In this document: in pieces, positions 11,814-29,756 of the stretch
Layout of the letters: each line of letters opens with the position of its first letter
Numbering within the stretch: position 1 is the stretch's first letter
Source of the DNA: Erythrobacteraceae bacterium
Lineage (GTDB): Bacteria; Pseudomonadota; Alphaproteobacteria; Sphingomonadales; Sphingomonadaceae
NCBI GenBank assembly: GCA_027487015.1
Contig: JAIYEK010000169.1
Coordinates: 9,080 to 73,079, forward strand
Length of the DNA stretch: 64,000 bases
Direction of reading: 5' to 3'
The notes under the pieces: generated by a model
The model's database searches: none
What the model was told of the DNA's origin: nothing
Seen by the model: only the letters and a program-made list of their open reading frames with translations
Program-made: the position numbers and the translations under genes

Positions 11814-13313
11814 TCAAGTGATAAGATCGTGGACGATGTGTGCAATCTGCTTGGCGAGGAAGCAGGGAACGGCATTGCCCACCTGCTTATACTGTTCGGT
11901 ACGCGGGCCGCAGAAGTAGTAGTTATCAGGGAATGTTTGCAGCCGGGCTGCCTCTCGGACGGTCAGAGATCGACACTGCTCAGGGTCGGGGTGAATGAAG
12001 TAGTGTCCGTCCTTTGATATATGGCTGGTCACAGTCGTTGAAGGAGCGTCCGCAAGCTGTACCCTGAAGCGATCCGCAAATGCCCCGCTCTCCCGGTTCG
12101 CGTGATTAGGTTGCAAGATGGCGGGGAATTCCTTCAATTTGGGAGAGTAACCATACGACTGCGCAAAAGCTGCAGCATAAAGGTATCGCCCCAGATCGCC
12201 TTTAATGTGGCCCCGTGTTTCATGTTGCAACGAGACTTCCAGCAAGGGGTCTTCAAGCCAGTCGGCGAGTGCCTTCGATGGGATCGGCATCGCGACATCG
12301 GCCGAGACACGCGGCTGACTGCCCATCTCATTGAGTTTTGAAATATGCCGCAGGACCGGAATGACTGAGCATGGCAGCGTATCATCCGCCGCCAGCTTCG
12401 AAGCCCACTCTCTCACGGCTTCCTGCCAATTTGTGGCAGCATCATTCTTACTGAGTCCGCTGCGCAGTTTAGGCATACCGCCGATCGCCGCGACAACAGA
12501 GTTGGATTGCGATGGCTCTGATTTGGTCAATAGCGGCCCTGTGAGCGTCCTTTCCTTCGCCACATCCGCCCTGAGACCAATAATGAAGACCCGATGCCGG
12601 GCCTGTGGGACCCCGTGCTCCTCAGCACGGACCACGAATTCTTTGGCCGTATGATCGACCAGCAGGTCGCCCTCCGCAGTAAGCGGAATGAGGACATATC
12701 CGTCACCTGCCGACCGGAGGTCTTCGAAAACCCGTTCAAAGATCGGACCTCCGTGCACGTGACTGGACAATATGCCCTTCACGTTTTCCATCACGAAGGC
12801 TGCAGGCTTCAACCGGTCAAGGATTGCAACGTATTCCCGGTAAAGGAAATGGCGCCCATCGCTCTCCGCGACATAGTCCTTTTTTCCCGCATTCCGCGAC
12901 CGGCCAGCCAACGAGTATGCTTGGCACGGTGGGCCACCAATCAACACAGTACGTCCGCTACAACGTTCGCGGGCACCATCGAGAATGGGGGCCAAATGTT
13001 CGAAAACACCGGCAGTTCCAAGCTCAAGTTGCTGCGCCTCTTCAATCGCTGTTTTCCAGTTAGCTGGATAGGATAAGGCCCAATCCGGCATCGCACGCGA
13101 ATGATTCAACGCCTCGTAATACTCAGCAGGAAACCCGCCTTCAAAGCTGCGGAGAAAAGCGCGAAGACGAAGTGTTTGGATGGCAAAATCATCCTTTTCA
13201 ACAGAGAGCCTTATCGACATGGGCGTGGCGCTTTCCCCGCCAGCGGCAGAGAACCCCTCACCCAGCCCGCCGGGTCCTGCGAATAAATCTACAATTTCAA
13301 TCTTGCTGCTCAA
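11814..13313 (-). CDS. dcm: DNA (cytosine-5) methyltransferase
   Basis: Motif I IVDLFAGPGGLGEGF, motif IV LIGGPPCQAYSLAGR, motif VI FVMENVKG, and C-terminal YKQVGNAVP are all present. The start is TTG at 13313 preceded by GGAGG. There is no in-frame ATG upstream before a stop. Confidence 0.93.
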   Translation of the reverse strand: MSSKIEIVDLFAGPGGLGEGFSAAGGESATPMSIRLSVEKDDFAIQTLRLRAFLRSFEGGFPAEYYEALNHSRAMPDWALSYPANWKTAIEEAQQLELGTAGVFEHLAPILDGARERCSGRTVLIGGPPCQAYSLAGRSRNAGKKDYVAESDGRHFLYREYVAILDRLKPAAFVMENVKGILSSHVHGGPIFERVFEDLRSAGDGYVLIPLTAEGDLLVDHTAKEFVVRAEEHGVPQARHRVFIIGLRADVAKERTLTGPLLTKSEPSQSNSVVAAIGGMPKLRSGLSKNDAATNWQEAVREWASKLAADDTLPCSVIPVLRHISKLNEMGSQPRVSADVAMPIPSKALADWLEDPLLEVSLQHETRGHIKGDLGRYLYAAAFAQSYGYSPKLKEFPAILQPNHANRESGAFADRFRVQLADAPSTTVTSHISKDGHYFIHPDPEQCRSLTVREAARLQTFPDNYYFCGPRTEQYKQVGNAVPCFLAKQIAHIVHDLIT

Positions 13314-13719: not shown

Positions 13720-14589
13720 TTAGTGACCGGCGGATTTAGCTGCAGCGTCCGTCCAGCGAATCAGATTCCGATATCCGTTATCCAGCTTCCAGTCATAGCT
13801 AGCAGTGCCGGTATCAAGAGGCATGACGCAGCCTGGAGAAGGCCTTTGCAACCACCGCGGCCAGCACGTCAGCGGTTGGGCAATTTTTGAATAGGGGTAC
13901 CAACCGCCGTTGACAAACTCGTAGATTCTCAAGTCCCAGCCGAGCGCCATCTGTGCTAGCGGGTTGAACCCAGCCGGCAAAAATCCCGTGCGTGGGCATT
14001 CACATTTGTCGATATGGACCGCAACGAGACCATTTCCCCGCGCGAGACTGCGCGCGATCTCATAGCGAACCCATTCGCGGGACCAGGTCTCGGTGCCAAC
14101 GAGTACGCAGGTGACGGACGTCCCGAGCAGTCCTCTGTCGATCACGCGCCTGAGATTGGCCGGGTTCGTACGCTTTACTCGCTCCCAAAGACTGCGATCA
14201 TTCGGAGTGAGAAGGCGGCCTTTGTCTGCCGGTCTGATCTTGCCCGAGTTGCGGACGTGATTAACCCGAAACACATCGCTAAAATGAAACGAATAAAACA
14301 CGTTCCGGACTTTGATGGCTTCGCGGGCTGGCTGTTGCGGCGGCGGTAACTCAAGAGCCTTGAGGATATCTCCGAGGAAATTCCGGTGCGGCTCCTTGGC
14401 CGATTGGTCGCTGCTTCCGAAGAGACTGTTAGTTCGGGGGACGGCGGCCAGTTGTTGAAACCGGTTTTGCGCGGGCTTCGGTGTGTCCAGCAGCGCCGCG
14501 AGCGGGGACATCTGATGGTTCGTCCGAGGTGGCAGGTCGGCCAGCGCTCGGGCGATGATTTCCAGCAGGTCTCTGCTCGGCTGGTCCAT
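13720..14589 (-). CDS. ThsB-like TIR-like (DUF1863-type) protein with a roughly 95-aa low-complexity N-terminal extension
   Basis: VRNVFYSFHFSDVFRVNHVRN, SLWERVKRTNPANLRRVIDRGLLGTSVTCVLVGTETWSREWVRYEIARSLARGNGLVAVHID, and ASYDWKLDNGYRNLIRW follow, block by block, the Thoeris ThsB / MTH538 TIR-like pattern as I remember it. Third positions in this frame are GC-rich across the overlap with the upstream ORF. Confidence 0.8.
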   Translation of the reverse strand: MDQPSRDLLEIIARALADLPPRTNHQMSPLAALLDTPKPAQNRFQQLAAVPRTNSLFGSSDQSAKEPHRNFLGDILKALELPPPQQPAREAIKVRNVFYSFHFSDVFRVNHVRNSGKIRPADKGRLLTPNDRSLWERVKRTNPANLRRVIDRGLLGTSVTCVLVGTETWSREWVRYEIARSLARGNGLVAVHIDKCECPRTGFLPAGFNPLAQMALGWDLRIYEFVNGGWYPYSKIAQPLTCWPRWLQRPSPGCVMPLDTGTASYDWKLDNGYRNLIRWTDAAAKSAGH

Positions 14590-15019
14590 GACTTGCTATA
14601 TATAGAAGAATGGACATGCCGGCCAGTAGGGCTGCATAAACCCCGGCAACCGACCAGCTGAAAAAAGCGACGCCAATCCTCCTCGCATTGAGAGGCCGGG
14701 GGCTGAGGCTGATAGCGTCGGCGCTGCTGAGGGGTGCAGAACACGTCGACTCATAAAGATCTCGAAATCGCCTCTCCTGCGCTAGATAATAGGCATCGAG
14801 CAGCGCGAACAGCAAAGGAACCGCCACGCCAGCCCAGACCAGCTCAGGCACAGGCTTCTGAAATGCAACGGCGACCAGGGCGGCGAGCACCGTTATGCAA
14901 AAATTCTTTGCGCTGGCGCTGAAACCCGACAGGCGCGAAATAATGCTCTGAATCATCTCCAGATGCGTCAGACGCATCTGGACCAGCGATTCCTCGGACA
15001 GCGAGGGCGGTGGGTCCAT
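14429..15019 (-). CDS. small multi-pass membrane protein (3-4 predicted TM segments), candidate effector
   Basis: ATG 15019 is preceded by GGGAGAAG and lies 21 nt after the pAgo stop. Hydrophobic segments are FCITVLAALVAVAF, LVWAGVAVPLLFALLDAYYL and IGVAFFSWSVAGVYAALLAGMSILLYI. The last ~53 codons overlap the ThsB-like gene out of frame and have poorer GC3, so the true C-terminus is uncertain. Confidence 0.65.
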   Translation of the reverse strand: MDPPPSLSEESLVQMRLTHLEMIQSIISRLSGFSASAKNFCITVLAALVAVAFQKPVPELVWAGVAVPLLFALLDAYYLAQERRFRDLYESTCSAPLSSADAISLSPRPLNARRIGVAFFSWSVAGVYAALLAGMSILLYIASHGPAEQRPAGNHRPSAGRPATSDEPSDVPARGAAGHTEARAKPVSTTGRRPPN

Positions 15020-15040
15020 CCGGCTTCTCCCTTGCAACGA

Positions 15041-16543
15041 TTAGATATAGTGCCGGAACGGCAACGGTGGCGGGTCGAGCTCGGGAGGAATCGCCGTCAA
15101 TACGCGCCCGACGCGATCGGCGAACCGGAGCGTGACAGGCATGCCGTCGGCGTAGAGGCACGCATTGAAATTGACCTTCGTCAGCGCGAGGACATCTGCC
15201 ATCACGGTCCGCAGATCGGCTTCGCCTCGGCAGATGTCGATCAGCAGTGGGTTCGGAACCTCGCGCCCCTGATAGGTCTGTAGCCGGGGGACAAAGCCCA
15301 AGGTCCACAACAGCCCCGATCGTGCGTTGAACGGGCGAGCCAACCCGCGAAGCGACGTGAATTTGTCAGCCCGGTAGAGCTTTCGCAGATTGTTGCGTTT
15401 GATGCGCACCCCCACGAGCTTCGTCGTTGCCGGCACAGCCGCTTCGAAGCCCGCCCACTCAACTTCGTTGAAACGCGCTCGCCCGTGGATAAAGACCTCG
15501 CGGGGGTCCTCGCCATGCTGTTTGCGATAGGCCCCAATCGCCTTGCGCATCAGCGCCTCGGCATGCGCACGATCAAGATGGAATTCATGCGTCTCGTCCG
15601 AATACCAATCGCCGATGGCCCCCTTGAACACGAGCCCGTCGCTGTCGGAAAGAAACATCTGCGCGCCGCAGCAGGCCTGGCTTCCCGAATGTTCGTCGAG
15701 GCGCTTGTAAACCATCCCAAGATAGCAAACGCCGGGCCGAATTCCGTCGAGGCGCCAAGGCTGCCCCCCGCCCTTGTAGAAGGCGCCCGTCGCGAGGTTC
15801 CACGCGACATCGACCGGATCCTGCAATCTTCGCTGCGGGAATACATGCGGTGCGAGCGTCGTTTCGCGGATCACCTGAATCACCGCGCGCGAACCGAGCA
15901 GCCTGCCCTTGAGCTGGTCGCGGAAGTCGCGCGCATAGCGATGCATTTCGGCACCCTTGTTGATCGCGTCGAGAAAAGGAAGAAGAGGTTCTGATTTCAA
16001 AGACCGGGCCTGCTTTCGCGAGAGGACCTGATCCTTGTGCGTTCGTTCGGCGACGGGAACCTGCGATTTGGGTCGCCCGCGCTCGTAGATCGTCTCGGGA
16101 ATGACGACACACCAAAGCGAAACCGGAAACTCCTCTTCGTCGATATATTGGGCAATTCTGCTCTCAAAGAGGCTGACTGTATTGTAGATGCGCTGGTGTC
16201 CGTCTGCATGGCGCAACGCCTCGTCGATGTCCTTGGGGTCGATTTCGATGCTAGCGATAGGCGCTTCCGACCAGGTGCAGCGAAAGGTTGCCGCGAAGCC
16301 GGGGAACAGGGACTGTTTGGGATCGTCTGCCTTGCTGACCGCGATAGGCCCCTGAATCGATGACACCCATTGCCGCAAATAGCGAAGCCCATCGGGTGTT
16401 CCAATCGCGCCGACGCGCAACTCCTTGGGTTGGCGCCGATCATGCACCGGTCCAAAAGCGGTCAGCCCGTCCTTGGGATGCTCCATTGACTGATCGTAGC
16501 CGAAAACGCAGCGCGGCTCGGGGATATGCCAAATTTCGCTCAT
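15041..16543 (-). CDS. short prokaryotic Argonaute (MID-PIWI only), SPARTA-type
   Basis: It is 500 aa from ATG 16543, with an ATGA overlap with the TIR-APAZ stop. The MID-type motif AFYKGGGQPWRL is present. PIWI-like blocks include CYLGMVYKRL and QMFLSDSDGLVF. The C-terminal end reads ...PPLPFRHYI. Confidence 0.85.
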   Translation of the reverse strand: MSEIWHIPEPRCVFGYDQSMEHPKDGLTAFGPVHDRRQPKELRVGAIGTPDGLRYLRQWVSSIQGPIAVSKADDPKQSLFPGFAATFRCTWSEAPIASIEIDPKDIDEALRHADGHQRIYNTVSLFESRIAQYIDEEEFPVSLWCVVIPETIYERGRPKSQVPVAERTHKDQVLSRKQARSLKSEPLLPFLDAINKGAEMHRYARDFRDQLKGRLLGSRAVIQVIRETTLAPHVFPQRRLQDPVDVAWNLATGAFYKGGGQPWRLDGIRPGVCYLGMVYKRLDEHSGSQACCGAQMFLSDSDGLVFKGAIGDWYSDETHEFHLDRAHAEALMRKAIGAYRKQHGEDPREVFIHGRARFNEVEWAGFEAAVPATTKLVGVRIKRNNLRKLYRADKFTSLRGLARPFNARSGLLWTLGFVPRLQTYQGREVPNPLLIDICRGEADLRTVMADVLALTKVNFNACLYADGMPVTLRFADRVGRVLTAIPPELDPPPLPFRHYI

Positions 16544-18024
16544 TCGTCGTCCTCTGCGTCTAGGGCATCCCACGGATCGAAGCTGTCGTCTTCGTCCGCG
16601 TCGATGTCGTCCTCGGGAACTTCATCGTCTCCAGAAGGCGAACTAGCCGCCGCTTCGACTGACTTTTTTTTCGCTCTTGGCGGCGGTGGATCGAATGAAA
16701 CGGGGCATATCCATCGCTCGGGTCGGCAGTCGATCACGCAGCTTTGATCGCGCGATACAGGCAGCTCTATCCGTTCAGTTCCATCAGACAGAAAGGAGAA
16801 ATAGGCGAGGTAAAGGGTGCGCCATTGCTCGTTGAACCATTGCTTGCAGAAGCTGCGGCGGATTTTATGCGCCTTGTCGGGGTCGCCCAGCAGCTCGCGG
16901 CCGTTGATGGTGAAAGCGACATGCGCCTCGACATGCGCTTCATCTGCCTCTCCGAATGCGAACTGGAGCCGCGGCGCATAGTGCCAGTGCATGCCGATCA
17001 CCCGTTCGTCGCCAACCTTCTTTGTCTTCACGCCATAGAGATATCGCTTCCGCTTGCGGCCGTCGAAGTCGGTAAACCGGACGTACTGGCCCTCGACCAT
17101 TCCCAGCGGAAGGAACCATCCGACCCGATTAGATGCAAGCTCAAGCCGCTGTAGACCGCGCGCCTCGCAAAATCGATCCCAAGCTTGCCGTAGCATGTTC
17201 ACGATATGATTGGACGCGTCGCGCCGCGATACGATGGGCGCGCCTCGCTCTGCGCTAGCGTCGAGAAAATCCTCGATGCTCACATCCGCGCGCAAGCTGA
17301 GCGCTGTTTCCGGCCCAAGCATTTCCCGAATCTCGTCTTCGGCAGCGAAGGTGATCAGCAACGCGCCATTGATCACGCTGGGGACCTTGAGGCGGCTTGG
17401 CAAATGTTTCAGGCCATCCGCCGAAACGCCAACATTGTGAAAGCGAATGCGTGGAGGCAGTTCAGATATTCCCAAGGAATTGGTCATGAGCTCGCTTTCG
17501 CGCTCGATGACGCGATGGCTGCCTTCAAACCAGTTCGCTACCCATTGCCCGACCGCGCTTGGCGTAGCCGATTTCGGAAACCCTTCCTTCTCCAGTAACT
17601 TGAGCAAACGAGCGAGGCCTTCCGCCCACGAAGGATCGAACGGAATAGCATTCTGCCTACCGAGCTGAATCGGCATATTGCTGCGCCTCAGCGGGCCAAG
17701 CGTCACCGGCACAATGAAGTCGGTATGCTGGACACCGATGCTTTCCGCCGTTGCGACCGCTCGCTCTATTTCATCGAGGACGCCATTTTTGTCACGCGTT
17801 ACGCTCGATACGGCGACGACGGTCTTGCCGATTACGGTATCGAAGGCCTCTTCGATATCGACCCAGAAGCGCTCGCCACCGATTAGCTGTGTCGCCTCGG
17901 ACCATACGCTATAGCCGGCATTCGCAAGCTGCATCCCGAGCCACGCTGCAAATTCCGTATCTTCTGGCATCGCGTGACTTAGGAAGATCACATCTCTCGA
18001 CGGCGTCGTGGCCTTACTGCTCAA
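16540..18024 (-). CDS. TIR-APAZ protein (SPARTA partner), with an acidic C-terminal tail
   Basis: N-terminal TIR: DVIFLSHAMPEDTEFAAWLGMQLANAGYSVWSEATQLIGGERFWVDIEEAF...VVAVSSVTRDKNGVLDEIERA. A ~300-aa APAZ-sized region follows. The tail is DDEVPEDDIDADEDDSFDPWDALDAEDDE. The start is non-ATG: TTG 18024, or alternatively GTG 17991. Confidence 0.85.
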   Translation of the reverse strand: MSSKATTPSRDVIFLSHAMPEDTEFAAWLGMQLANAGYSVWSEATQLIGGERFWVDIEEAFDTVIGKTVVAVSSVTRDKNGVLDEIERAVATAESIGVQHTDFIVPVTLGPLRRSNMPIQLGRQNAIPFDPSWAEGLARLLKLLEKEGFPKSATPSAVGQWVANWFEGSHRVIERESELMTNSLGISELPPRIRFHNVGVSADGLKHLPSRLKVPSVINGALLITFAAEDEIREMLGPETALSLRADVSIEDFLDASAERGAPIVSRRDASNHIVNMLRQAWDRFCEARGLQRLELASNRVGWFLPLGMVEGQYVRFTDFDGRKRKRYLYGVKTKKVGDERVIGMHWHYAPRLQFAFGEADEAHVEAHVAFTINGRELLGDPDKAHKIRRSFCKQWFNEQWRTLYLAYFSFLSDGTERIELPVSRDQSCVIDCRPERWICPVSFDPPPPRAKKKSVEAAASSPSGDDEVPEDDIDADEDDSFDPWDALDAEDDE

Positions 18025-18617: not shown

Positions 18618-19118
18618 CTAGACTTGGAAAAACTCGGGCACCCCCTTCAGCGCGGCTAGCACCGACGTGCAGACATGCAACACGTCGTGTTTCTTACCGT
18701 CCGGGGTCTCGACCACGACCGTTTCGCGGGCATCGGAGTGCGTTGTTCCGTCTGAATAGTAGGAACCGTTGCTGAACGCCGCACCCTTGCCGCGATTGAG
18801 GTGTTCTGCACGCAGGCCGACTAGCTCAGACTTGGGGTGTCGGGTGAGCTCCACGTGCTTCCCGGCATTCGCTATTGCCCTGACGGTATGGAAAGCAGGG
18901 AACCTGGCAGCGATCTCCTCTGCGATCGCGTGCGGAGTGCTAGACCTGACATGCGCGACCACGTCCGCAAAGTGGTATAGGATGATGCAAGATGAAATGG
19001 CGAGGTCGTAGGCGCTTGGCTCCGCCTCGAAGCGACGGCAAAGCGGTGAAGCGAGTTCGTCGATGTATACTTGAGGATTTGAAAAGGCCATGGTTGGTGC
19101 ATACTCGGACACGATCAA
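18618..19118 (-). CDS. hypothetical protein; possible HEPN-like motif
   Basis: The ORF is 157-166 aa, with alternative ATGs at 19118 and 19091. VRAIANAGKHVE resembles the R..(G)N...H motif of DUF4145/HEPN-like domains. No other motif was recognised. Confidence 0.5.
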   Translation of the reverse strand: MIVSEYAPTMAFSNPQVYIDELASPLCRRFEAEPSAYDLAISSCIILYHFADVVAHVRSSTPHAIAEEIAARFPAFHTVRAIANAGKHVELTRHPKSELVGLRAEHLNRGKGAAFSNGSYYSDGTTHSDARETVVVETPDGKKHDVLHVCTSVLAALKGVPEFFQV

Positions 19119-19188: not shown

Positions 19189-19767
19189 GGTCACTCTAAT
19201 GACCGAGATTGGCGCGTCTTCCGGTTGCCTGACCATGAAGGCGAGGTGGTGTTCGCCGAATTCTCGAATGACAACCGGCGGCTCATGACGGTGACCCGCG
19301 AGCGAATCCGGGTCTGGGATGTCAGCCGCCTCGCGGCCTAGCAAGGTCGCCCGGTGCTCGGCTTGGTCGCCGCGCTGGCGGACGGAACCGGCACCGTCTC
19401 CGAGGAAGAACGCAAGGACATCCTCATGGTGATGTCCCCCGTAGACGTTCACGAGGCTCTGCTAGCGTTGCTGAGCGAAGTGGATCGTCTGGAGGTCGGG
19501 CACCGGCGCACTTGGCTTCGGGCAGACCTTTCTGCTCCGGCCATCGAGAAGGCGGCGTGCGGCACCGGGGGCGCGCCGGGATCCCGCTTAGCGCCGGCTG
19601 CGAAAGCGGCTCTGGGTTTCGCCACTCGCTCGGACGACGGCTTCTACTTCACCATGTATACGAACAGGTTACCATACAAGATCGCGAACCTTGTGAGACC
19701 TGCAGATGAGGCGGATCTAACGGCTCACCCATCCTTGACGTCCAATAGCTCGGCCACCAAGGTTTGA
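19189..19767 (+). pseudogene. 5'-truncated WD40-repeat protein C-terminus with an in-frame TAG
   Basis: My translation gives GHSNDRDWRVFRLPDHEGEVVFAEFSNDNRRLMTVTRERIRVWDVSRLAA, then a stop at 19339-19341, then the same frame continues as QGRPVLGLVAALADGTGTVSEEERKD... to 19767. HEGEV..AEFS.D..RL.T.....IRVWDV is a canonical last WD40 blade. There is no upstream coding continuation, since a stop lies at 19186. Confidence 0.4.
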
Positions 19768-20498
19768 AAAATCAGAGGATAAGGCGTCACGGGTGTCTCG
19801 TCTACGTCCCGGCGTTTGACTACGTCCCGGTTGGCTTCTTCAGGCGGACTTGCCGACGCGCGGCGCCGCGCAATGTCCGCGAGCACCTCGGCTTCGACTA
19901 CCTTCACCCGATCGTTGGGCGTGGACGCAAGCTCAGCCGCAGCGCCCCCAACCGATTTCAGGGTGTAGATCATTCGCGCCGGAATGATCCGCTCGAACAG
20001 CGCTGCCTCGTCTAGGACCCCTTCCATACCGCCTATGCAAACCATGGCATCCGGTCGGGTATCGAGCAGCATCTGACGGCGCATTGCCGCCAGGCTCATG
20101 AGGCATTGGGGCGCCTGGCGCTTCTCAGGGTCATACCGTTCGCCACCGACAGCAGCCGTCCAAACGACCGTTGCCGCCTCCAATTCGTAGATCAGCAGGG
20201 TCGCCTCTTCGGCGACCTCGCGAAAAGCCTCGGACTGGTAGATGACCACCGAGGCGGGCGCCCGATCCTCGCCGCTTTCGGCGCGGCGTGGCTTGCGATA
20301 TTCGCCGGCCACCATGGCGACTAGGGGCGAGATCGTCGGGTGTGCTCCAAAGACGAGCCGCCCGCCCCGCGCAAACACAGCCCGCGCTAGGCTAATGACC
20401 GCCTGTTCGATCTCGAAAGCGGCGCGCCGCTCGCGGCGGAAACGCTCGGCACGTTCCGGCAGGGGCACGCTTGCGGACAGGAAGACGGTCAACATCAC
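19725..20498 (-). CDS. stand-alone SLOG (LOG/DprA-like Rossmannoid) domain protein, TIR-associated type
   Basis: VFLSASVPLPER...AVISLARAVFARGGRLVFGAHPTISPLVAMVA and VCIGGMEGVLDEAALF fit the SLOG pattern of TIR-associated clades (hFhSAS.P / GGHP / GG.eGh). The start overlaps the upstream stop (TGATG). Confidence 0.65.
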   Translation of the reverse strand: MMLTVFLSASVPLPERAERFRRERRAAFEIEQAVISLARAVFARGGRLVFGAHPTISPLVAMVAGEYRKPRRAESGEDRAPASVVIYQSEAFREVAEEATLLIYELEAATVVWTAAVGGERYDPEKRQAPQCLMSLAAMRRQMLLDTRPDAMVCIGGMEGVLDEAALFERIIPARMIYTLKSVGGAAAELASTPNDRVKVVEAEVLADIARRRASASPPEEANRDVVKRRDVDETPVTPYPLIFQTLVAELLDVKDG

Positions 20499-21787
20499 AG
20501 ACTTCCCTGCACCATCTGACGACCGAGGATGAGCATGTCGCCCTCATCGCAGAACTTGAGAGTGCTGACATCGGCTAGCCAGGACAAGCGCGCATGCCGC
20601 CCAGGCTCCATCAGCTGCGACAATCCGATTACGACGCCGACAGTTGGGTGTGCGATTTGGCTGTGAACTCGGTGAAAATCCGGCAGGTCGGGCGGGCGCG
20701 GCGTGACCGACACGATGTAGGTTTTGCTTCCGGTCGCAGCGTTGATCTGAAAGGCGCCGAAGCCCACAGGAATTGGCCGCGAGCCTCCGGCACCCAGAAT
20801 CGCACCCTCAAGTGTCGCCTCGAGAATCTGGCGGCGGCGCACGATGGCGCGGTCGTGTTCGCGGCGGATGAGCGCAACGACCTCATCAAGCTTAGCTGCC
20901 ACGAGAACGGCGTTTGGCCTGAACGCGCCTCCGACGAAATCGATCCCTTCGAGACGCGTTCGCAGCGCCTCGTCCACACCCGGAATCGGGGGTGCGCTGC
21001 AGACGTTCAGCGCGTGCATGCCCAGGACGCAGGTCTTGGCGACATTCACTTCATATGTGACCCATGAGGACTGGAGGAAAGTGTCGGACTCTAGAAAAAG
21101 CACCATCGACTTGTCGCCGAGCTGTTCGGTTAGCCGCGCCTGGAAGTTGACGCCCGGTGGAATCCGGAAGTGATCCAGAAAAACATCGAAGCCAGCGTGG
21201 CCGAGTGCATCGAAGATCTGGATAGCGAGGCCGGCGGTTTCCGCCTGACGGTAGCTGATGAAGATCTTTGGGAGCTCAGCAGTGATTCCGGCCAAGCCCA
21301 GAATGGCCGGGACCGCCTCGGCGGGGGAGCCGCTCCAGAAGGCAGCGTTGTAGGCGCTAACCCAACTGGGAAACATCGTCGAGAATTGGGGCTTCGATAC
21401 CATCGGCGCAACCGGTAGCACCACGTGGGCGGGCGCGCCCGCCGCCCAGCCCGCCAACGCCGGCTGTTGATCCGGAAACGCCTGATGTCCGTCGGTCACC
21501 ATTACCAGAGCCTTCTGACAATTAGGTTCGTTTTGCGCGTGACAGCCGTCTATGCCGCCTAAGCCGCCGCCGCACGGCGGAACCGCTTGCCGGGTAGCGC
21601 CCATGGCAAGCAACTCAGCCGCCAGCGCATCGCGCAATTCCCACAGATCCTGCTGCGCCTGCGATGTCCCGCAGTGGGCCAAGCTGACGAGGGCGGGGTT
21701 TTGCACTGCCAAGCCTTCCCAGCTCTCACAGCGAAAGCCGCTCCCGTCCTGCCAGCGCACGATCACCTGCGCACCGCTCATCAGCAT
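20495..21787 (-). CDS. three-part protein with a central TIR domain
   Basis: KIFISYRQAETAGLAIQIFDALGHAGFDVFLDHFRIPPGVNFQARLTEQLGDKSMVLFLESDTFLQSSWVTYEVNVA is a TIR core that includes the conserved W..(Y)E position. I recognise no family in the ~175-aa N-terminal region or the ~150-aa C-terminal region. ATG 21787 is preceded by GGGAGGGG. Confidence 0.8.
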   Translation of the reverse strand: MLMSGAQVIVRWQDGSGFRCESWEGLAVQNPALVSLAHCGTSQAQQDLWELRDALAAELLAMGATRQAVPPCGGGLGGIDGCHAQNEPNCQKALVMVTDGHQAFPDQQPALAGWAAGAPAHVVLPVAPMVSKPQFSTMFPSWVSAYNAAFWSGSPAEAVPAILGLAGITAELPKIFISYRQAETAGLAIQIFDALGHAGFDVFLDHFRIPPGVNFQARLTEQLGDKSMVLFLESDTFLQSSWVTYEVNVAKTCVLGMHALNVCSAPPIPGVDEALRTRLEGIDFVGGAFRPNAVLVAAKLDEVVALIRREHDRAIVRRRQILEATLEGAILGAGGSRPIPVGFGAFQINAATGSKTYIVSVTPRPPDLPDFHRVHSQIAHPTVGVVIGLSQLMEPGRHARLSWLADVSTLKFCDEGDMLILGRQMVQGSL

Positions 21788-22353
21788 GCTGTCCCCTCCC
21801 GGCTAGATGAGCCGCATACTATCACAACTTCTGGCGCTCGCCGACGATCATCGCCTTGCCATGGTCCGCAGCGTCTAGACGCCGTCGCTAACGGCCACCT
21901 TGATACGCCTCGAGCTGCGCCCAGCCGACAAGATTCTTGTAGCCGCACTGCCTAGCGTGATCGTAGGCGCGTCGCGCCGTGCGATAGGGGCTTGATGAAC
22001 TTCCGCCCGGACACAATCGCGAACCAGTTCGGCCAAGCCACCGAATCGGCCGTCATACGCCCGCTTCAGACTGAGGCAGGCCCTCGTCCGCTTTGGAATG
22101 CTGTCGATTCACTCCTGAGCCTCTCAGATTGTCGCACTGCCGCCGGACCGCTCAATAGAATTCGATTAGCGGGTTCCGGCAAAAGCGGCAATTCACGCGT
22201 CACGCGCGCGCCTTGGAACAGCTTGAGCTGGTCGATTGGCGATCTAGGCAGACGGAAAGCGCCGCTGCTCTGCGGCCAATCAGATTATGGCTCGATTAAG
22301 ACGCTTAAGCTGGGAGCCCCCGACAATTTGGCGTTTGACACCTTTGGCCTGAG

Positions 22354-22400: not shown

Positions 22401-22952
22401 ATGAAAAGCCAGGACATCGTCATCATGCTCAAGCTGGTGAGCTTAGAAGACCAGATCAGGCAGGCTCATCTCGATGAACCGACGATCTCCGATCCGTTCG
22501 CACTGCGAAGTCTTGAAAGCGAACTAGGCATCAGCAAAACCGAGATCGGCGCATCGATCCGACGCAGTATCGCCTCTAACCTGGCCATAAAATCTAATGA
22601 TCGCGCCAAGGTGAACCGGCGCAATCTCACCGAATTCGTCCAGCACGGGCTGAAATATGTCTTCCCCGCAAAACCGGGCGCACCGCAGCGCGGCGTTGCC
22701 ACGGGCTTTGCCGCACCTATGCTCGAAGGTAAACTCGTAAGCTCCGGTGCCGACATCTATATTTGGCCCCATCCCGAAGGAAGTCAGAGAGGTCTTTCAA
22801 TCGCTCCGTTGTTCAAGTCTGTCCCCGACGCAGCTCTCAAAGACGCCCGACTCTACGAATTGCTGGCGCTGATCGATGCAATCAGAACCGGCAATCAGCG
22901 CGAAGCAAATCTGGCCCAACGCAGCTTTGAGGAACGGATGGCGTACGCATGA
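22401..22952 (+). CDS. putative wHTH antitoxin/regulator (AbiEi-like)
   Basis: A 183-aa ORF that overlaps the downstream nucleotidyltransferase-like gene by 4 nt. The assignment rests on gene context rather than on a clear motif. Confidence 0.45.
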   Translation: MKSQDIVIMLKLVSLEDQIRQAHLDEPTISDPFALRSLESELGISKTEIGASIRRSIASNLAIKSNDRAKVNRRNLTEFVQHGLKYVFPAKPGAPQRGVATGFAAPMLEGKLVSSGADIYIWPHPEGSQRGLSIAPLFKSVPDAALKDARLYELLALIDAIRTGNQREANLAQRSFEERMAYA

Positions 22953-23644
22953 GCCTGCAAGGTGAACTTCTCGAAATGCTGGAAACCGTCGCCCAAGCAT
23001 TGGGCGATGATCTGTGCCAGCGGATGGTGTTTGTCGGCGGGTGCTCGACCGCAGTGCTCATCACTGACGAGATAACACTGCAGGAAGTGCGAGCCACAGA
23101 CGATGTCGACCTGATCATTGACCTAGCCGGAATGGCCCAGTGGATGCAGCTGCAGGAAACCCTGCACCAAAAGGGATTCACGGTGTCGGGGGAAGATGAC
23201 GTGATTTGCCGAATGCGGCTCGGCGACCTCAAAGTCGATTTCATGCCCGACGACCCGGACATCTTGGGGTTCAGCAATCGATGGTACAAGGAAGGCATCT
23301 ACACGGCAGTCAAGTACGCCCTGCCCAGTGGGCGTGTGATCAAGCACCTGACACCGCCGATCTTTCTGGCCACCAAGCTCGAAGCCTATGCTGGCCGCGG
23401 CGCGAATGACCCCATAGGAAGCCACGATCTGGAAGACATCCTCAATGTCGTGGACGGACGACCAACACTCTTGACCGAAGTGCAGGCGGCAGAAGCCCAA
23501 GTGCGTGGGTACCTGTCGGAGCAGTTCGAGGCGCTACTACATCACCCAGACTTCGAGATTTTCCTTTATGGAAATATCCGGGGGCCCGATGGCCGAGCCG
23601 CGATGGTGCATGGCAGGGTGAAGGCGTTGGCCGGGATCAAATAG
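22949..23644 (+). CDS. nucleotidyltransferase-fold protein (AbiEii/MNT-like toxin family)
   Basis: MVFVGGCSTAVLITD...VRATDDVDLIID fits the GG...(x)n...D.D NTase signature. GSHDLEDILNVV lies further downstream. Confidence 0.55.
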   Translation: MSLQGELLEMLETVAQALGDDLCQRMVFVGGCSTAVLITDEITLQEVRATDDVDLIIDLAGMAQWMQLQETLHQKGFTVSGEDDVICRMRLGDLKVDFMPDDPDILGFSNRWYKEGIYTAVKYALPSGRVIKHLTPPIFLATKLEAYAGRGANDPIGSHDLEDILNVVDGRPTLLTEVQAAEAQVRGYLSEQFEALLHHPDFEIFLYGNIRGPDGRAAMVHGRVKALAGIK

Positions 23645-25905: not shown

Positions 25906-25975
25906 TGCGTCCTCATGTTCACATGTGGGCATGTGAGACTGTGCGATTGTTGGGATGTGCGGGTGTGAACATGGT
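25906..25975. repeat. CACATG-type repeat array, copy C (intergenic, between the relaxase stop and the parA start); putative parS/operator
   Basis: Sequence: cctcatgttcacatgtgggcatgtgagactgtgcgattgttgggatgtgcgggtgtgaacatgg. It is bounded by the 10-bp inverted termini CATGTTCACA / TGTGAACATG. Confidence 0.8.
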
Positions 25976-28900
25976 CAGCGGCCCCGCTCCAGGTCGCGGC
26001 CCGGCTCGATGTCGCGCCCAAGCTCAACTTCGCGCCCTCGGCTCGGGACCAGTTCAAGCTCACGCTCCTTGTTCTCGAGCACCATTCGGGCGAATGCGGG
26101 GCCACCGATAGCAACCAACATGCGGTGCTCGTCCGTCATGCGGGGATCGTGTTTTGCCTGATCTGGTGCGGTCTCGAGCGCGCTGGTCTTGGCGCCGGAG
26201 CGCGCTTCGACCTGGCGTTCGACCCGGTCGGGGTTGTCGGTCACGAGCGTCGCGTTCTCCGCGATCCGGGTCACCGCGACCAGGAACGAGGCTGAGGTGT
26301 TGAGCATCCGCTCGCGCTCGGACATCATGATGATGCCGTTCTGTGCGGTCATCCCCTGAACGACGTGGACGTTGATGGCGTAAGCGAGGTCGAGCCGTTC
26401 GAGCATAGGATCGCCGCGCGGAAGATCGTGGAGCTGGCCATTGCTGGCCTTCACGGTGATGGTATCGCCATCGATCCGCGCGACATGGGCGATGTCGCCG
26501 TTGAGCAGCCCGCGCGTCCCATCCTTGACGGTCCAGCGGATGCGGTCGCCCTGGTGGAGGGCAATGTCCTTGCGCTCGAAGATGGTGACGGCGTCGTGCT
26601 TAAGGTTGCGGGGCAGGCGGTCCGGATCGAACCGCCTCACTTCGCCGCCGGGCATGGCAAGCTCGACCTTGCCGTCCTTGACGCCGATCACTGTCCCGCG
26701 ATCGCCGCGGGTGAAGCCCTGTCTGGTCAGGTTGGTCTCGAAGGCAACGACGCGCCCCTCCTGGTAGCCCTTCAATTGCCGCGCGCCCTCGCGGGTGACC
26801 GTAACGCGGTCGAGCACATCGAGCTTGAGCCCCCGCGCGCTGATCTGGCCGCGCTCGATCAGCGATGCCTGCGCGGCCGCATTGCCCGCGCTGCGCATCG
26901 CACGGCCAGCGGCGAGAAGGATCGTATTGTCGCGCTCGTCCTTCGGCAGGTCGGCCCACATATCGGCGGCGATGCCTGCGATCTTGCCCGGCGCAACTTC
27001 GATGGTGGCGGGCTTGAGCGCGGCGAAGGCCTGGGCGACATCGCCCTGTTCGAGCGCGCGGTTGATGGCCTGCATCTGCGGGGTCTGCGCGCGCAGGTTT
27101 TCGATGATCTGGCTTTGCCTGAGACCCTGCTGCTGCAATTGCGCGAAGGGTTTTCCGGCTTCGATGGCGGGCAGCTGCTTGATGTCGCCAGCGAGCACCA
27201 GCTTGCCCACATCCATCTGGTTGGCGAGGGTGATCAGCCGCGCGAGCCGGTCTGTGCCGATCTGACTGGCCTCATCTACCATCACCAGCGCACCGGACAG
27301 CTCCGCCCGTGCCGCTGCCACCTTATCCGCGCTGGCACTGCCCTCGATCACACGCGCATACCGGGCCAAAAACGCATCCACGGTTGATGCTGGACTGGCC
27401 GTCTTCTCCCCAAACTCCCGCGCGATCCGGCCCACGTGGGACAGTGCCACCACCTGCCGCCCTTCCTCCCGCGCAATGGCTGCGACCGGAGCCAGCGCCG
27501 CCGACTTCCCCACACCCGCGCCGCCCTGAACCAGATGCACGCGGTCTTTGGAGGTGAGGATCGCGACGCCGGCCTGCTCCTGCCCGGGATTGAGGCGGCG
27601 AAGGCCGATGGCTCGCGCTTGCTCCTGCAGCCGCGCGACGATGCCGTCCTTGTCAGCAATGGGTTGAACGCTGTCCTTGCCCGCCTGCGCAAGACCGATG
27701 ACCTTGTTCTCCATGGCCAGCGCCTGCTCGGTAGTAAGCATCCGGTCGCGATCCGCTGGACCGCTGCCGACCAGCAAACCGCGCTCTTGCAGCAGATCAA
27801 TCCGCGCCTCGATCATGTCGACCGTCACCGGTCCTTGCCGTTCGAGCGCGGTGCGGATCAGATCATTGCGAGAGAACGCCGCCTCACGCTCGCCCAGCTC
27901 CCGCGCTGCCGAGGCCACCGCCTGCGCTGCGGCAAAGGCCTTGGGCTCAAGCCGTCCATGGCGCTCTGGCACCAGCGGATCGGAATCGCGCGGGGTCAGG
28001 CCCATGGCACTGGCAATCGCCATTCCCCGCTCGCCGATTCCACGAATGCCGTCGACGACGCGCGACCAGACGGTTTGCTCACCCGCAGCACGGGCCATGG
28101 CGCTTTCGATCAGGCGCGCTGGATCAAAGCCTATTGCGCGAGCGGTCTCCTTCCATGCAGCAACCTGCCGTGCCGCATCGGGCTCCAGTTCCTTTCCGCG
28201 CCGGGTCGAGAGCGCCGCAAGTTCCCTCTCGCGGGCACTGCCCCGATCCTCCTTGGCCAGCTCGGCGAGGATTTCGGCCCGGCGAGTAGAGAAGGCCTCA
28301 ACCGCCTCGCGCGTCACACCCTTGATCTCGAATGCGCCGTCGATGGAGTTTCGGGCAGGGGTTGTCTCATAGCCCAAGGCCTCGACCCGGCTTCGCAGTT
28401 CGGCATTGTGGACCGCCGATAGAACGTGCTGCGCGCGGTAGAGTTCATCGTTGCGCACCGCATGCCATTTGCCATCCGAGGCTCTGGTCGCGTTGGCGAC
28501 GACGGCGTGGATATGAAGCTGCGGCTCGCCGTTCCTGTTCACGTCGTGGAGAAAGGTCGCGGCGATGAGGTTGCCGGTGCGCTCCGGCACCTGCCGCCCG
28601 AGCGTCGCATCCCAGACCCGAGCTTCGACGACGTTCTTCTCGGCCCAGCGCAGTGTCGCGGTCACGGAGTCCTTCAACGCCTCGACCAGACGCTTGTCGC
28701 CGCCGAGCATCGCCACAAGCGACACCGACTTGGACGCTGAGAACGTGAGGTCAACGCCGGGGCGGTGGGCGCCGTCTTTCCCGGCGATCACCGATCCATC
28801 GGGCAGCTTGCCTTCGAGCACGGCAGCAAAGGTTTGTTCTTCGACCTTGCCAGCCAGCCCAAGCGCGTCTGCGCCCTTACCGAACCACGCGCTAGCTTCC

Positions 28901-28986
28901 TGCGTCTGATCGGCGGTGTAGTAATTGTCGGCCGAGTAGTATTCGGCCGCCGATGAGGCAGAGCCGAGGCTGCCGAGCGTAATCAT
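25975..28986 (-). CDS. traA: MobF-family conjugative relaxase/helicase (TrwC/TraI/TraA-like)
   Basis: From ATG 28986: MITLGSLGSASSAAEYYSADNYYTAD (catalytic Tyr region), GVDLTFSASKSVS, the 3-His motif ATFLHDVNRNGEPQLHIHAVVAN, and the helicase P-loop VQGGAGVGKS. The longer ORF-track start (29085) is an Arg/Pro-rich extension that overlaps the upstream gene. Confidence 0.92.
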   Translation of the reverse strand: MITLGSLGSASSAAEYYSADNYYTADQTQEASAWFGKGADALGLAGKVEEQTFAAVLEGKLPDGSVIAGKDGAHRPGVDLTFSASKSVSLVAMLGGDKRLVEALKDSVTATLRWAEKNVVEARVWDATLGRQVPERTGNLIAATFLHDVNRNGEPQLHIHAVVANATRASDGKWHAVRNDELYRAQHVLSAVHNAELRSRVEALGYETTPARNSIDGAFEIKGVTREAVEAFSTRRAEILAELAKEDRGSARERELAALSTRRGKELEPDAARQVAAWKETARAIGFDPARLIESAMARAAGEQTVWSRVVDGIRGIGERGMAIASAMGLTPRDSDPLVPERHGRLEPKAFAAAQAVASAARELGEREAAFSRNDLIRTALERQGPVTVDMIEARIDLLQERGLLVGSGPADRDRMLTTEQALAMENKVIGLAQAGKDSVQPIADKDGIVARLQEQARAIGLRRLNPGQEQAGVAILTSKDRVHLVQGGAGVGKSAALAPVAAIAREEGRQVVALSHVGRIAREFGEKTASPASTVDAFLARYARVIEGSASADKVAAARAELSGALVMVDEASQIGTDRLARLITLANQMDVGKLVLAGDIKQLPAIEAGKPFAQLQQQGLRQSQIIENLRAQTPQMQAINRALEQGDVAQAFAALKPATIEVAPGKIAGIAADMWADLPKDERDNTILLAAGRAMRSAGNAAAQASLIERGQISARGLKLDVLDRVTVTREGARQLKGYQEGRVVAFETNLTRQGFTRGDRGTVIGVKDGKVELAMPGGEVRRFDPDRLPRNLKHDAVTIFERKDIALHQGDRIRWTVKDGTRGLLNGDIAHVARIDGDTITVKASNGQLHDLPRGDPMLERLDLAYAINVHVVQGMTAQNGIIMMSERERMLNTSASFLVAVTRIAENATLVTDNPDRVERQVEARSGAKTSALETAPDQAKHDPRMTDEHRMLVAIGGPAFARMVLENKERELELVPSRGREVELGRDIEPGRDLERGR

Positions 28987-29756
28987 CGCCGGTCCTCGTG
29001 GGCGATGACCCGCAGGCCAAGATCGCGCTCCTGCTCCGGGACCCGGCAATCGGTAACACCGTATTTTCGGGCGATCAGCCGACACATTTTCGCAGGGTGG
29101 TCAATCAGCTTACCGGACTGCCACACCGACCAGCCATCGAACTGGGTAGGCAGGATTGTGGCTATGAGAGCGCCCATGAGGAGTGCCAGGCCGCCGCATG
29201 CCGACAGAAATTTCAGCGCCAGAAAGCGGTTATCGCCGAGATAAACGGATCGCATCTGCCGCGGCTCGCTTGCGAGTGCGATCGACTTGTCGAGCTGAGC
29301 GGAGATCTTCACGAGGTGCGGCTCGAGCGCTGCGATAAGTGTCGGCTCAAGATCTTCGAAGGCAGAGAGGAGCTGCTCGGCCCTGGCATAAAACGGCGAG
29401 AGACTGGCCTGATCCTGCTCTCGAAAATGGGCGAGAAGTTTCTCCTGGGCGATGCGATTGGCCTCCTCGCCGCCGTTCCACTTCTCGGTCAGCTTGCCGA
29501 GCATCCGCGCATTGTCCGCCTGGGCCCGGTCCAGCTCGATCACGAGCTCACGCAACTGGTGCACCAGCCCGCTGACGGTTGCATCGAGCCGGGGCGCAGC
29601 TTCGGTCTGGAAGGTCGGCCGTCCCGCGTCGTGCGCCTCGATCAGCTCCTGGATCGCCTTGCGCAAAAGCTCGGGCCGGCTGAGCGATTTTGCCTGCGCA
29701 ACGCGGTCGAGGGCGGCAAGTACACGGTCCTCAACCGAGACATTGACTTGTGCCAT
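28983..29756 (-). CDS. relaxosome accessory protein with an N-terminal ribbon-helix-helix and a C-terminal TM segment
   Basis: MAQVNVSVEDRVLAALDRVAQAKSLSRPELLRKAIQELIE is CopG/RHH-like. It lies immediately upstream of, and overlapping, the relaxase. The hydrophobic segment is LSACGGLALLMGALIATIL. Confidence 0.6.
   Translation of the reverse strand: MAQVNVSVEDRVLAALDRVAQAKSLSRPELLRKAIQELIEAHDAGRPTFQTEAAPRLDATVSGLVHQLRELVIELDRAQADNARMLGKLTEKWNGGEEANRIAQEKLLAHFREQDQASLSPFYARAEQLLSAFEDLEPTLIAALEPHLVKISAQLDKSIALASEPRQMRSVYLGDNRFLALKFLSACGGLALLMGALIATILPTQFDGWSVWQSGKLIDHPAKMCRLIARKYGVTDCRVPEQERDLGLRVIAHEDRR

Follow-up and report, generated by a model that had tools for sequence, protein, structure and literature searches.

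An overlapping TIR–SLOG gene pair related to type III Thoeris in a defence island of an Erythrobacteraceae bacterium

How can a protein with a TIR domain and a SLOG protein serve together in immunity when neither carries a recognisable effector domain? This question is raised by two overlapping genes in a 64 000-nucleotide stretch of DNA from an Erythrobacteraceae bacterium (GenBank assembly GCA_027487015.1, contig JAIYEK010000169.1, positions 9,080 to 73,079 of the forward strand), which as a whole is referred to below as the window. Both genes lie on the minus strand. The upstream gene (20495..21787; coding from 21787 to 20498, stop codon 20495–20497) encodes a TIR protein of 430 amino acids that resembles ThcB4 of type III Thoeris, and the downstream gene (19725..20498) encodes a stand-alone SLOG protein of cluster 3 that resembles ThcA. 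On balance, we lean towards reading this pair as a minimal, self-contained anti-phage module of the type III Thoeris kind that is carried on a mobile defence island and in which the TIR protein signals to the SLOG protein.

The overlapping genes and their relation to type III Thoeris

The two genes meet in a GTGATG junction (20493..20498, minus strand), read as ...CTG TGA TG TTG..., in which the TIR stop codon TGA shares bases with the SLOG start codon. With the ATG at 20495 as start, TGA and ATG have one nucleotide in common (TGATG) and the SLOG protein has 256 residues; with the alternative GTG at 20498 the overlap is four nucleotides and the protein has 257 residues. The one-nucleotide overlap corresponds to the start chosen by the gene calls in relatives of the pair, and residue numbers below refer to the ATG. 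Translational coupling of the two genes is predicted from this overlap. A Shine–Dalgarno-like sequence, GGGAGGGGA (21792..21800, minus strand), lies 4 nt 5′ of the TIR ATG, and a scan for promoters and terminators at the pair gave results no better than those for shuffled sequence. The pair is not a chance arrangement, since homologues of the two proteins are found with E values down to 1e-278 and 1e-152 and the gene order is kept in 74 of the 82 loci described below. Collections of plasmids and phages contain no DNA match to the pair, and at the protein level two weak matches were found in plasmids and none in phages.

Type III Thoeris is represented in NCBIfam (June 2026) by equivalog models for ThcA (NF058525, cut-off 110 bits) and ThcB4 (NF058526, cut-off 220 bits). 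The SLOG protein scores 145 bits (E = 2e-42) against the ThcA model, which is above the cut-off, with residues 5–196 aligned to positions 1–165 of 184. The TIR protein scores 158.3 bits (E = 2.4e-46) against the ThcB4 model, below the cut-off, with residues 87–408 covering 317 model positions (46–362 of 375). The pair from P. silvicola, a bona fide type III system like those of the other Pseudomonas loci, is followed by two further TIR genes and obtains 347.6 bits for ThcB4 and 183.4 bits for ThcA; its proteins are 24% identical to the window TIR protein over 292 residues (E = 5e-21) and 33% identical to the window SLOG protein over 189 residues (E = 4e-19). Judged from these comparisons, the pair is a divergent two-gene relative of the named type III Thoeris with a single TIR, and not a categorically new system. 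The ThcA model, the gene order and strand and the conserved TIR glutamate place it within type III, whereas the ThcB4 score and the number of TIR genes do not. Between 18024 and 22400 there is no further TIR gene; the nearest ones belong to a SPARTA-type system (16540–18024) and to PDC-M50B (13720–14589).

The likeness extends to architecture. Both window proteins are homologous to the ThcB4–ThcA core and are encoded in the same order and on the same strand, the SLOG protein is a cluster 3 member without a fused effector domain, and the TIR protein keeps the catalytic glutamate and the C-terminal region. In contrast to the published system, the window pair has one TIR gene and lacks accessory small TIRs, the N-terminal domain of its TIR protein is different, longer and contains cysteines, and its SLOG protein bears an extra tail of about 60 residues with a PYPLIxQ helix.

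Type III Thoeris, composed of the TIR proteins ThcB1–4 and the SLOG-only protein ThcA and described in Pseudomonas, has anti-phage activity according to the papers that cite van den Berg et al. (2024). In Yirmiya et al. (2025) this type is described as a coupling of TIR proteins to an effector that contains SLOG, renamed ThsD there, and its signalling is said to have 'remained uncharacterized'. A phage inhibitor of type III Thoeris, TadIII-1, is mentioned in the literature as well. Among the first four Thoeris types it is the one for which the signal and the action of the effector are unsolved. A preliminary description of this DNA had reported the two open reading frames with the TGATG overlap and proposed translational coupling; the frames are found at these coordinates on the minus strand, and the same overlap recurs in relatives. 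It had also regarded the pair as uncharacterised and outside the named systems, a view that has to be given up given the ThcA match and the sub-threshold homology to ThcB4. Its further point, that a partner consisting of SLOG alone has no demonstrated mechanism, agrees with the statement of Yirmiya et al. (2025) quoted above. Its proposal was to fall if the pair matched a system already named and mechanistically understood: a name has been found, type III Thoeris, and a known mechanism has not.

Type I Thoeris, in which the TIR protein ThsB acts with the SIR2–SLOG protein ThsA, provides a second comparison. Here too a TIR enzyme is combined with a SLOG partner, and the similarity includes a fold match of the window SLOG protein to the SLOG domain of BcThsA and a PADLOC match of the window TIR protein to ThsB. 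In the account given by Yirmiya et al. (2025), the SLOG domain of type I binds the TIR product. The window SLOG protein differs in having no SIR2 domain (Pfam) or other effector domain and no PADLOC ThsA match, PADLOC v2.0.0 being without any model for this protein, and it is LD_cluster3/DprA-like and not of the STALD type. The same division is drawn in a review, in the part that concerns type III, where its SLOG protein is assigned to the SMF/DprA branch and not to the STALD type of ThsA. The window TIR protein is about twice as large as a typical ThsB and has two extra domains.

Domains and conserved residues of the two proteins

The TIR core (residues 171–262; 21002..21277, minus strand) is recognised by Pfam TIR_2 (residues 175–252, E = 1.3e-12) and carries the motifs FISYRQ, FLD and SxWxxxE, with the putative catalytic glutamate Glu246 at 21050–21052. 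The protein is also matched by the PADLOC ThsB1 model PDLC00434 (4.6e-19). An AlphaFold2 model built from an alignment of 37 sequences has a mean predicted local distance difference test (pLDDT) score of 90.8, and in a whole-chain Foldseek search of the PDB its central part matches the TIR domains of SARM1, RPP1, RPS4, AbTir and ThsB; TIR domains are the only matches and nothing is returned for the flanking regions. Across 78 TIR proteins of the family the motifs FxSY, FLD, FQ and S..W...E are conserved, and Phe176, Ser178, Tyr179, Asp205, Trp242 and Glu246 are each present in at least 94%. Glu246, in the segment SSWVTYEV, is invariant in 37 of 37 close homologues, is present in 95% of the 78 family members, which include both clades described below, and aligns in BLASTP with the corresponding glutamate of Pseudomonas ThcB4. 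This pattern of conservation fits an active NAD+-processing TIR domain. Identification of the protein as the TIR–APAZ component of a SPARTA system was considered and rejected: the Aga_TIR models match with only 8e-06 and through the TIR core alone, and the genuine SPARTA system lies beside it, at 15041–18024.

The core is flanked by an α/β domain at the N-terminus (residues 1–170; 21278..21787, minus strand), delimited by alignments and containing the conserved cysteines Cys20 and Cys72 and the motif PCGG..CHA..CQK, and by a C-terminal region (residues 263–430; 20498..21001, minus strand). For the latter AlphaFold2 predicts a long helix (residues 297–332) that includes EHDR..RRR and, after it, a small α/β domain with TPRPPELPDFH and GLSRLMEP. 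Pseudomonas ThcB4 has this region too, the BLASTP alignment reaching residue 406. Separate alignments of the N-terminal and C-terminal parts gave no consistent Pfam family and no meaningful PDB sequence match. The order α-β-β-β-α-β in the C-terminal domain recalls PD-(D/E)xK folds, but the conserved D...(D/E)xK residues are missing and an active nuclease was therefore rejected.

The SLOG protein belongs to Pfam PF18180 (LD_cluster3, 'SLOG cluster3'; E = 1.8e-23), and its AlphaFold2 model, likewise from a 37-sequence alignment, has a pLDDT of 86.0. Its best Foldseek matches in the PDB are DprA structures (4ljl and 3maj); it also matches LOG (5its and 5zbl, E of about 1e-3), the N-terminal region of TRPM3 and the SLOG domain of BcThsA with 3′cADPR (7uxs). 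A search of BFVD returned generic SLOG proteins only. Among 83 SLOG proteins the motifs LSASxP, FGxHPxISP, QS, S...MR, GGMxG...E and G.A are conserved at 88–100%, and the window protein carries the equivalent residues His52/Pro53, Gln87/Ser88, Ser134, Arg139, Gly155–Gly159 and Glu163. The glycine-rich ligand-pocket motif GGMEGvldE (Gly155–Glu163; 20007..20033, minus strand) falls in invariant alignment columns and is conserved in 88–99% of the 83 members; Arg139 and Glu163 form the conserved Arg/Glu pair that is typical of SLOG and LOG pockets. The ThcA alignment stops at residue 196, after which a C-terminal extension follows (residues 197–256; 19728..19907, minus strand) with a PYPLIFQ helix at 19764–19784, in which Pro238, Tyr239 and Gln244 are invariant. 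The conservation fits an intact SLOG nucleotide pocket and by itself does not distinguish binding from binding combined with catalysis. Pfam, NCBIfam, AlphaFold2 and Foldseek thus agree on both folds proposed in the preliminary description, the motifs quoted there (KIFISYRQ...SSWVTYEV, VFLSASVP, GGRLVFGAHP and IGGMEGV) are all present in invariant columns, and the regions beside the TIR core that it could not assign have received no assignment from Pfam, PDB sequence or whole-chain Foldseek searches either. An effector domain was not recognised in either protein by Pfam, NCBIfam, PDB sequence or structure searches.

The pocket residues also bear on a different role for the SLOG protein, namely that of a LOG-like N-glycosidase or other nucleotide-processing enzyme instead of a receptor. 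Such an enzyme would act on the TIR product to give the active molecule, or would itself degrade nucleotides or NAD+. The window protein has its SLOG fold, glycine-rich loop and Arg/Glu pair in common with the nucleotide N-glycosidases LOG and PpnN, and the Foldseek matches to LOG point the same way, as do a set of unusually conserved polar residues (His52, Glu65/Tyr66, Gln87/Ser88, Glu119, Arg139, Glu158 and Glu163) and the 24-residue spacing from Arg139 to Glu163, which we take to resemble that of the catalytic Arg/Glu pair of LOG. However, neither Pfam nor NCBIfam gives a LOG-family match at E ≤ 0.1 and there is no PDB sequence match, so that membership of the LOG family was rejected and the likeness is one of fold. 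Where LOG enzymes have their first motif, GGGxxGxMG, the window protein has FGxHPxISP; its GGMEGvldE comes close to the second, PGGxGTxxE; and its partner in the operon is a TIR protein. The Arg/Glu pair also binds ligand in the non-catalytic SLOG domain of ThsA and is therefore not discriminating. We consider a pathway of two consecutive enzymes improbable. Membership of the DprA/Smf family was rejected in the same manner, as the best Foldseek matches reflect the fold and no DprA sequence signature is present; flanking SAM or winged-helix domains and a competence context are missing as well.

For signalling from the TIR protein to the SLOG protein, the analysis shows the homology, the gene coupling, the conservation of catalytic and pocket residues, the two folds and the defence context; what sets the system off, which molecule is made and how the effector acts are inferred, as follows. 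The ThcB4-like TIR protein would sense infection through its N-terminal and/or C-terminal flanking domains, the N-terminal domain being the candidate sensor. The TIR domain, with its putative catalytic residue Glu246 retained, would convert NAD+ into a nucleotide derived from ADP-ribose. The co-translated SLOG protein would bind this nucleotide in its canonical pocket, where Arg139, GGMEG, Glu163, FGxHPxISP and QS are conserved, and would execute or relay the response. A nucleotide made by the TIR domain is favoured as the signal because Glu246 and the ligand-pocket motifs of the SLOG protein are both conserved. As no effector domain is appended to the SLOG protein, the effector step would have to reside in the SLOG fold itself or in a 1:1 TIR:SLOG complex. 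For a SLOG-fold effector the options are ligand-induced oligomerisation, target binding or nucleotide hydrolysis.

Family census and the weighing of roles

Relatives of both proteins are abundant. Grouped at 90% identity, the matches of a protein search form at least 1103 clusters for the SLOG protein and at least 223 for the TIR protein, with many of the two kinds sharing contigs, and an exhaustive HMMER search of 1.84 billion representatives recovered 1340 SLOG relatives at E ≤ 1e-3, 799 at 1e-10 and 243 at 1e-30. For a census based on hidden Markov models (HMMs), one genome per GTDB species was taken, which gave 80 loci, and four further non-redundant loci were added, making 82 (numbered with the prefix L below). 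A ThcB4-like TIR gene (encoding about 380–450 residues) lies directly upstream of the SLOG gene and on the same strand in 74 of the 82 loci, and the two are fused into a single open reading frame in three, so that a large TIR together with SLOG, adjacent or fused, is found in 77 loci from bacteria and archaea; the remaining five have no large TIR. Pairs occur in Proteobacteria (among them the Pseudomonas loci), Acidobacteriota, Bacteroidota, Cyanobacteria, Myxococcota and Archaea. Of the 74 loci with an adjacent pair, 50 lack any further small TIR gene within 4 kb on that strand, and the other 24 have one to three or more. Because the two genes are adjacent in 74 loci and fused in three, and because 50 of the 74 manage without a small TIR, we regard the large TIR and the SLOG protein as the conserved core and multiple TIRs as accessory. 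Conservation as neighbours, put forward as a test in the preliminary description, is thereby borne out, and so is the defence-island setting, as systems recognised by PADLOC surround the pair.

Within this family the window pair belongs to a separate 'long' clade. Here the TIR protein has an N-terminal domain of about 170 residues with conserved cysteines, and an HMM of this domain matches members of the 'long' clade only, the short clade giving no match. The SLOG protein of the clade has the C-terminal extension of about 60 residues with the invariant PYPLIxQ helix, which is not part of the 184-position ThcA model. Relatives in this clade behave like the window pair in passing the ThcA cut-off and failing that for ThcB4. 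Public records name them no more precisely than 'hypothetical', 'SLOG domain-containing' or 'TIR domain-containing' proteins. The joint occurrence of the SLOG tail and the TIR N-terminal domain was considered as a sign of physical contact and rejected as such: the correlation is real but is confounded by shared descent.

Several loci depart from the common arrangement. Clear fusions of a ThcB4-like TIR and a cluster 3 SLOG in one open reading frame are present in L046 (6840–8723), from a Bathyarchaeia-type archaeal metagenome-assembled genome (MAG), and in L059 (4217–6349). In four Chloroflexi-type MAGs (L047, L050, L053 and L055) a cluster 3 SLOG of 223 residues is preceded by only a small TIR-like open reading frame of 125–156 residues, which is a different minimal architecture.

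Other relatives are found among further TIR, patatin and ThsB genes. In Rudaea sp. (L001, 10832–16470) a pair that is 85% identical to that of the window lies inside a conjugative element and is followed by a second, short cluster 3 SLOG (127 bits against the ThcA model) and a ThsB_TIR gene, and then by an operon on the opposite strand that encodes TIR, Nmad2, MazG_C, UDG and Patatin/LD_cluster2 proteins. In Sphingobium yanoikuyae (L004, 10798–16507) the pair is followed by genes for a 206-residue FxsC-like TIR, an AAA ATPase with a KGGVGR motif and pentapeptide repeats, an S8 peptidase and a 443-residue protein; the same block is present on two metagenome contigs (L005 and L006) and may represent an extended system.

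The fusions and the stop/start overlap raise the question of whether the roles could be reversed, with the TIR protein as an effector that depletes NAD+ and the SLOG protein as a nucleotide-sensing regulatory subunit held in a 1:1 complex. The input to SLOG would then be a phage-induced nucleotide or, where they are present, the product of the accessory small TIRs. Conservation of the overlap, the existence of fused proteins and the missing effector domain in SLOG suit this arrangement. The distribution of the genes suits it as well, the large TIR and SLOG being invariant and the small ThsB-like TIRs variable, like the sensors of type I Thoeris. Yirmiya et al. (2025) also warn, where they consider unverified systems, that the TIR may be the toxic effector. 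On the other hand, 50 of the 74 loci have no accessory TIR that could make the signal, TIR effectors usually accompany a sensor of their own (pAgo, STING or SAVED, for example), and bulk depletion of NAD+ is difficult to reconcile with a 2026 preprint in which type III Thoeris is said, at second hand, to act without an abortive-infection phenotype. We judge this exchange of roles to be unlikely.

Signalling from TIR to SLOG, the reading to which we lean, has to face several observations that weigh against it. The SLOG protein has no effector domain, so the route by which phage would be stopped is left unexplained, and this holds across the family: nearly all of the 150 best-scoring SLOG relatives are stand-alone proteins of about 190–320 residues. 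The TIR protein falls below the ThcB4 cut-off and the operon has a single TIR gene where the published system has several. Given the fusions and the translational coupling of TIR and SLOG, a diffusible signal is no better a fit than a stoichiometric complex. A small protein with three predicted transmembrane (TM) segments, encoded in 31 of 83 loci although not next to the window pair, could be the real effector. The non-abortive action reported in the 2026 preprint is accompanied there by the hypothesis, also second-hand, that type III depends on a NucS nuclease domain, and no similarity to NucS is detectable in either window protein: profile–profile comparison with hhalign against a three-sequence alignment of NucS/EndoMS from PDB matches gave probabilities of 0.7% for the TIR family and 0.3% for the SLOG family, and Pfam NucS has no match in the window or in the Pseudomonas type III proteins. 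Finally, the mechanism is drawn from computation, that is from sequences and predicted models.

It is possible, though doubtful, that the pair is a complete sensor–signal–effector unit with a new effector logic, in which the bare SLOG fold acts as a ligand-activated enzyme or as an inhibitor that binds a target, or in which SLOG gates the three-TM family. Under the bare-SLOG option defence would proceed non-abortively, in contrast to SIR2, TM or caspase effectors. Should the SLOG fold by itself prove to be the effector, TIR immune signalling would gain a new effector principle, which may be echoed in SLOG-containing proteins of eukaryotes, TRPM channels for example. If the pair is a complete unit of this kind, the 'long' clade would offer the simplest model in which type III signalling, possibly with a new TIR-derived molecule, could be worked out. 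The widespread clade to which the window pair belongs has just two genes and thus offers a minimal construct for the study of type III. Concrete handles, besides the minimal architecture itself, are Glu246 of the TIR protein, Arg139, Glu163 and the PYPLIxQ tail of the SLOG protein, the clade-specific domains and the three-TM family, which is a new lead.

Three-transmembrane neighbours and the defence island

To survey the neighbourhood of the family, 150 randomly sampled neighbours (within 5 kb) from 42 loci were compared with PADLOC. The most recurrent families were PDC-M50A, the ThsB models and PDC-M50B. PDC-M50A-like proteins have about 130 residues, three hydrophobic segments and the motifs NSFxxKGW and LDAYYLxxERxFRxLY. 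With an iterated HMM they were found in the fetched flanks of the 31 loci mentioned above; in 18 the gene is immediately adjacent to the pair and on the same strand, ten times upstream of the TIR gene and eight times downstream of the SLOG gene. One copy lies inside the type III operon of Pseudomonas sp. 286 (L063, 9396–9788). The family as a whole comprises at least 801 clusters, and many of the 120 listed members are on contigs that also hold TIR and SLOG matches. In the window, PDC-M50A (14429–15037, minus strand; PADLOC and HMM homologue) is small and predicted to have three TM segments, and PDC-M50B (13720–14589, minus strand) is a ThsB-like TIR (Pfam ThsB_TIR 1.7e-19; PADLOC). The two genes lie 4.7 kb downstream of the pair and on the same strand, with a 166-residue open reading frame and the SPARTA system in between.

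These neighbours suggest that the TIR–SLOG pair could be an incomplete core that needs a partner encoded elsewhere, for which the PDC-M50A protein, as a membrane effector, is the best candidate. Its recurrence beside pairs, its place in a Pseudomonas type III operon and the many shared contigs are in favour of this, as is the role of small three-TM proteins as proven effectors of type V Thoeris in the cited literature. The relative closest to the window, L088, has a pair that is 97% identical and a PDC-M50-type module 2.3 kb away. As this module is only 43–45% identical to the window copy, the association of PDC-M50 with the pair must have recurred independently. The same figures also tell against the proposal, since modules 45% identical beside pairs 97% identical have been acquired separately. 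Moreover, 52 of the 83 loci have no such gene in the fetched flanks, and the window protein has its own ThsB-like TIR partner, with SPARTA lying between it and the pair. We think it quite unlikely that the window pair is incomplete in this sense; for some of the TIR–SLOG loci the three-TM protein is a candidate for the effector that is missing, but not obviously so for the window pair. Identity of the PDC-M50A-like protein with ThsF, the small three-TM DUF2270 protein that accompanies a TIR in type V Thoeris, was considered and is unsupported at the sequence level, as none of the 120 listed members has a Pfam annotation. The recurrent third gene resembles ThsF in its length, its three hydrophobic segments and its proximity to TIR genes, and differs in not being DUF2270 by Pfam and, in the window, in not being adjacent to the pair.

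A mosaic defence island occupies the left half of the window; its GC content is about 0.56–0.62 (1–33 kb), compared with 0.65–0.73 at 33–53 kb, and the TIR–SLOG pair forms a GC-richer block within it (0.61–0.64). The island begins with a HipA-like kinase (783–2045), which precedes a five-gene Mza system, MzaA–E (2255–11759, plus strand; PADLOC E values down to 0), whose MzaA combines ankyrin repeats with regions 2 and 4 of sigma-70. Next comes a Dcm/DrmMII-like cytosine methylase (11814–13313), encoded on the other strand. Beyond PDC-M50 lies a complete SPARTA-type system (15041–18024, minus strand; PADLOC), in which the gene for the short prokaryotic Argonaute (pAgo; 15041–16573, pAgo_I 1.5e-193) shares 34 nt with the TIR–APAZ gene (16540–18024, Aga_TIR-PNTD 1.4e-133); the PDC-M50A reading frame starts 4 nt after the pAgo stop. 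The 166-residue frame between SPARTA and the pair (18618–19118, minus strand) has no Pfam, NCBIfam or PADLOC match. On the other side, a PDC-M21A/B candidate system (22401–23644, plus strand; PADLOC E = 6.5e-72 and 2.3e-104) is divergent from the TIR gene, with 600 bp of intergenic DNA between them.

This setting bears on whether the pair has a defence role at all or is a housekeeping or regulatory pair for NAD or nucleotide metabolism that merely happens to be located in the island. The uninformative names of the relatives would allow the latter, and the support for defence in the pair itself is non-experimental. Against it stand the five other defence systems around the pair on a mobile island of lower GC content, the homology to a system reported to be anti-phage, and a patchy distribution across phyla with neighbours that vary, even in the 97% identical relative. 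We regard a role outside defence as extremely unlikely.

Downstream of the SLOG gene, a 600 bp gap (19215–19725) holds the truncated, frameshifted remnant of a convergent β-propeller-like gene that is intact in L088 (277 residues). Homology with L088 runs about 590 bp beyond the SLOG stop and ends near 19215, and this break marks the boundary of a rearrangement or insertion. A TrwC-type relaxase/helicase (25975–29085, minus strand) lies beside the island. The right half of the window encodes polysaccharide functions with best matches in Sphingomonadaceae, among them an O-antigen-ligase-like protein in the high-GC part (38872–41151) whose best matches are on Sphingomonadaceae plasmids. The relaxase, the GC profile and these plasmid-like matches suggest a mobilisable island in a sphingomonad-like genome.

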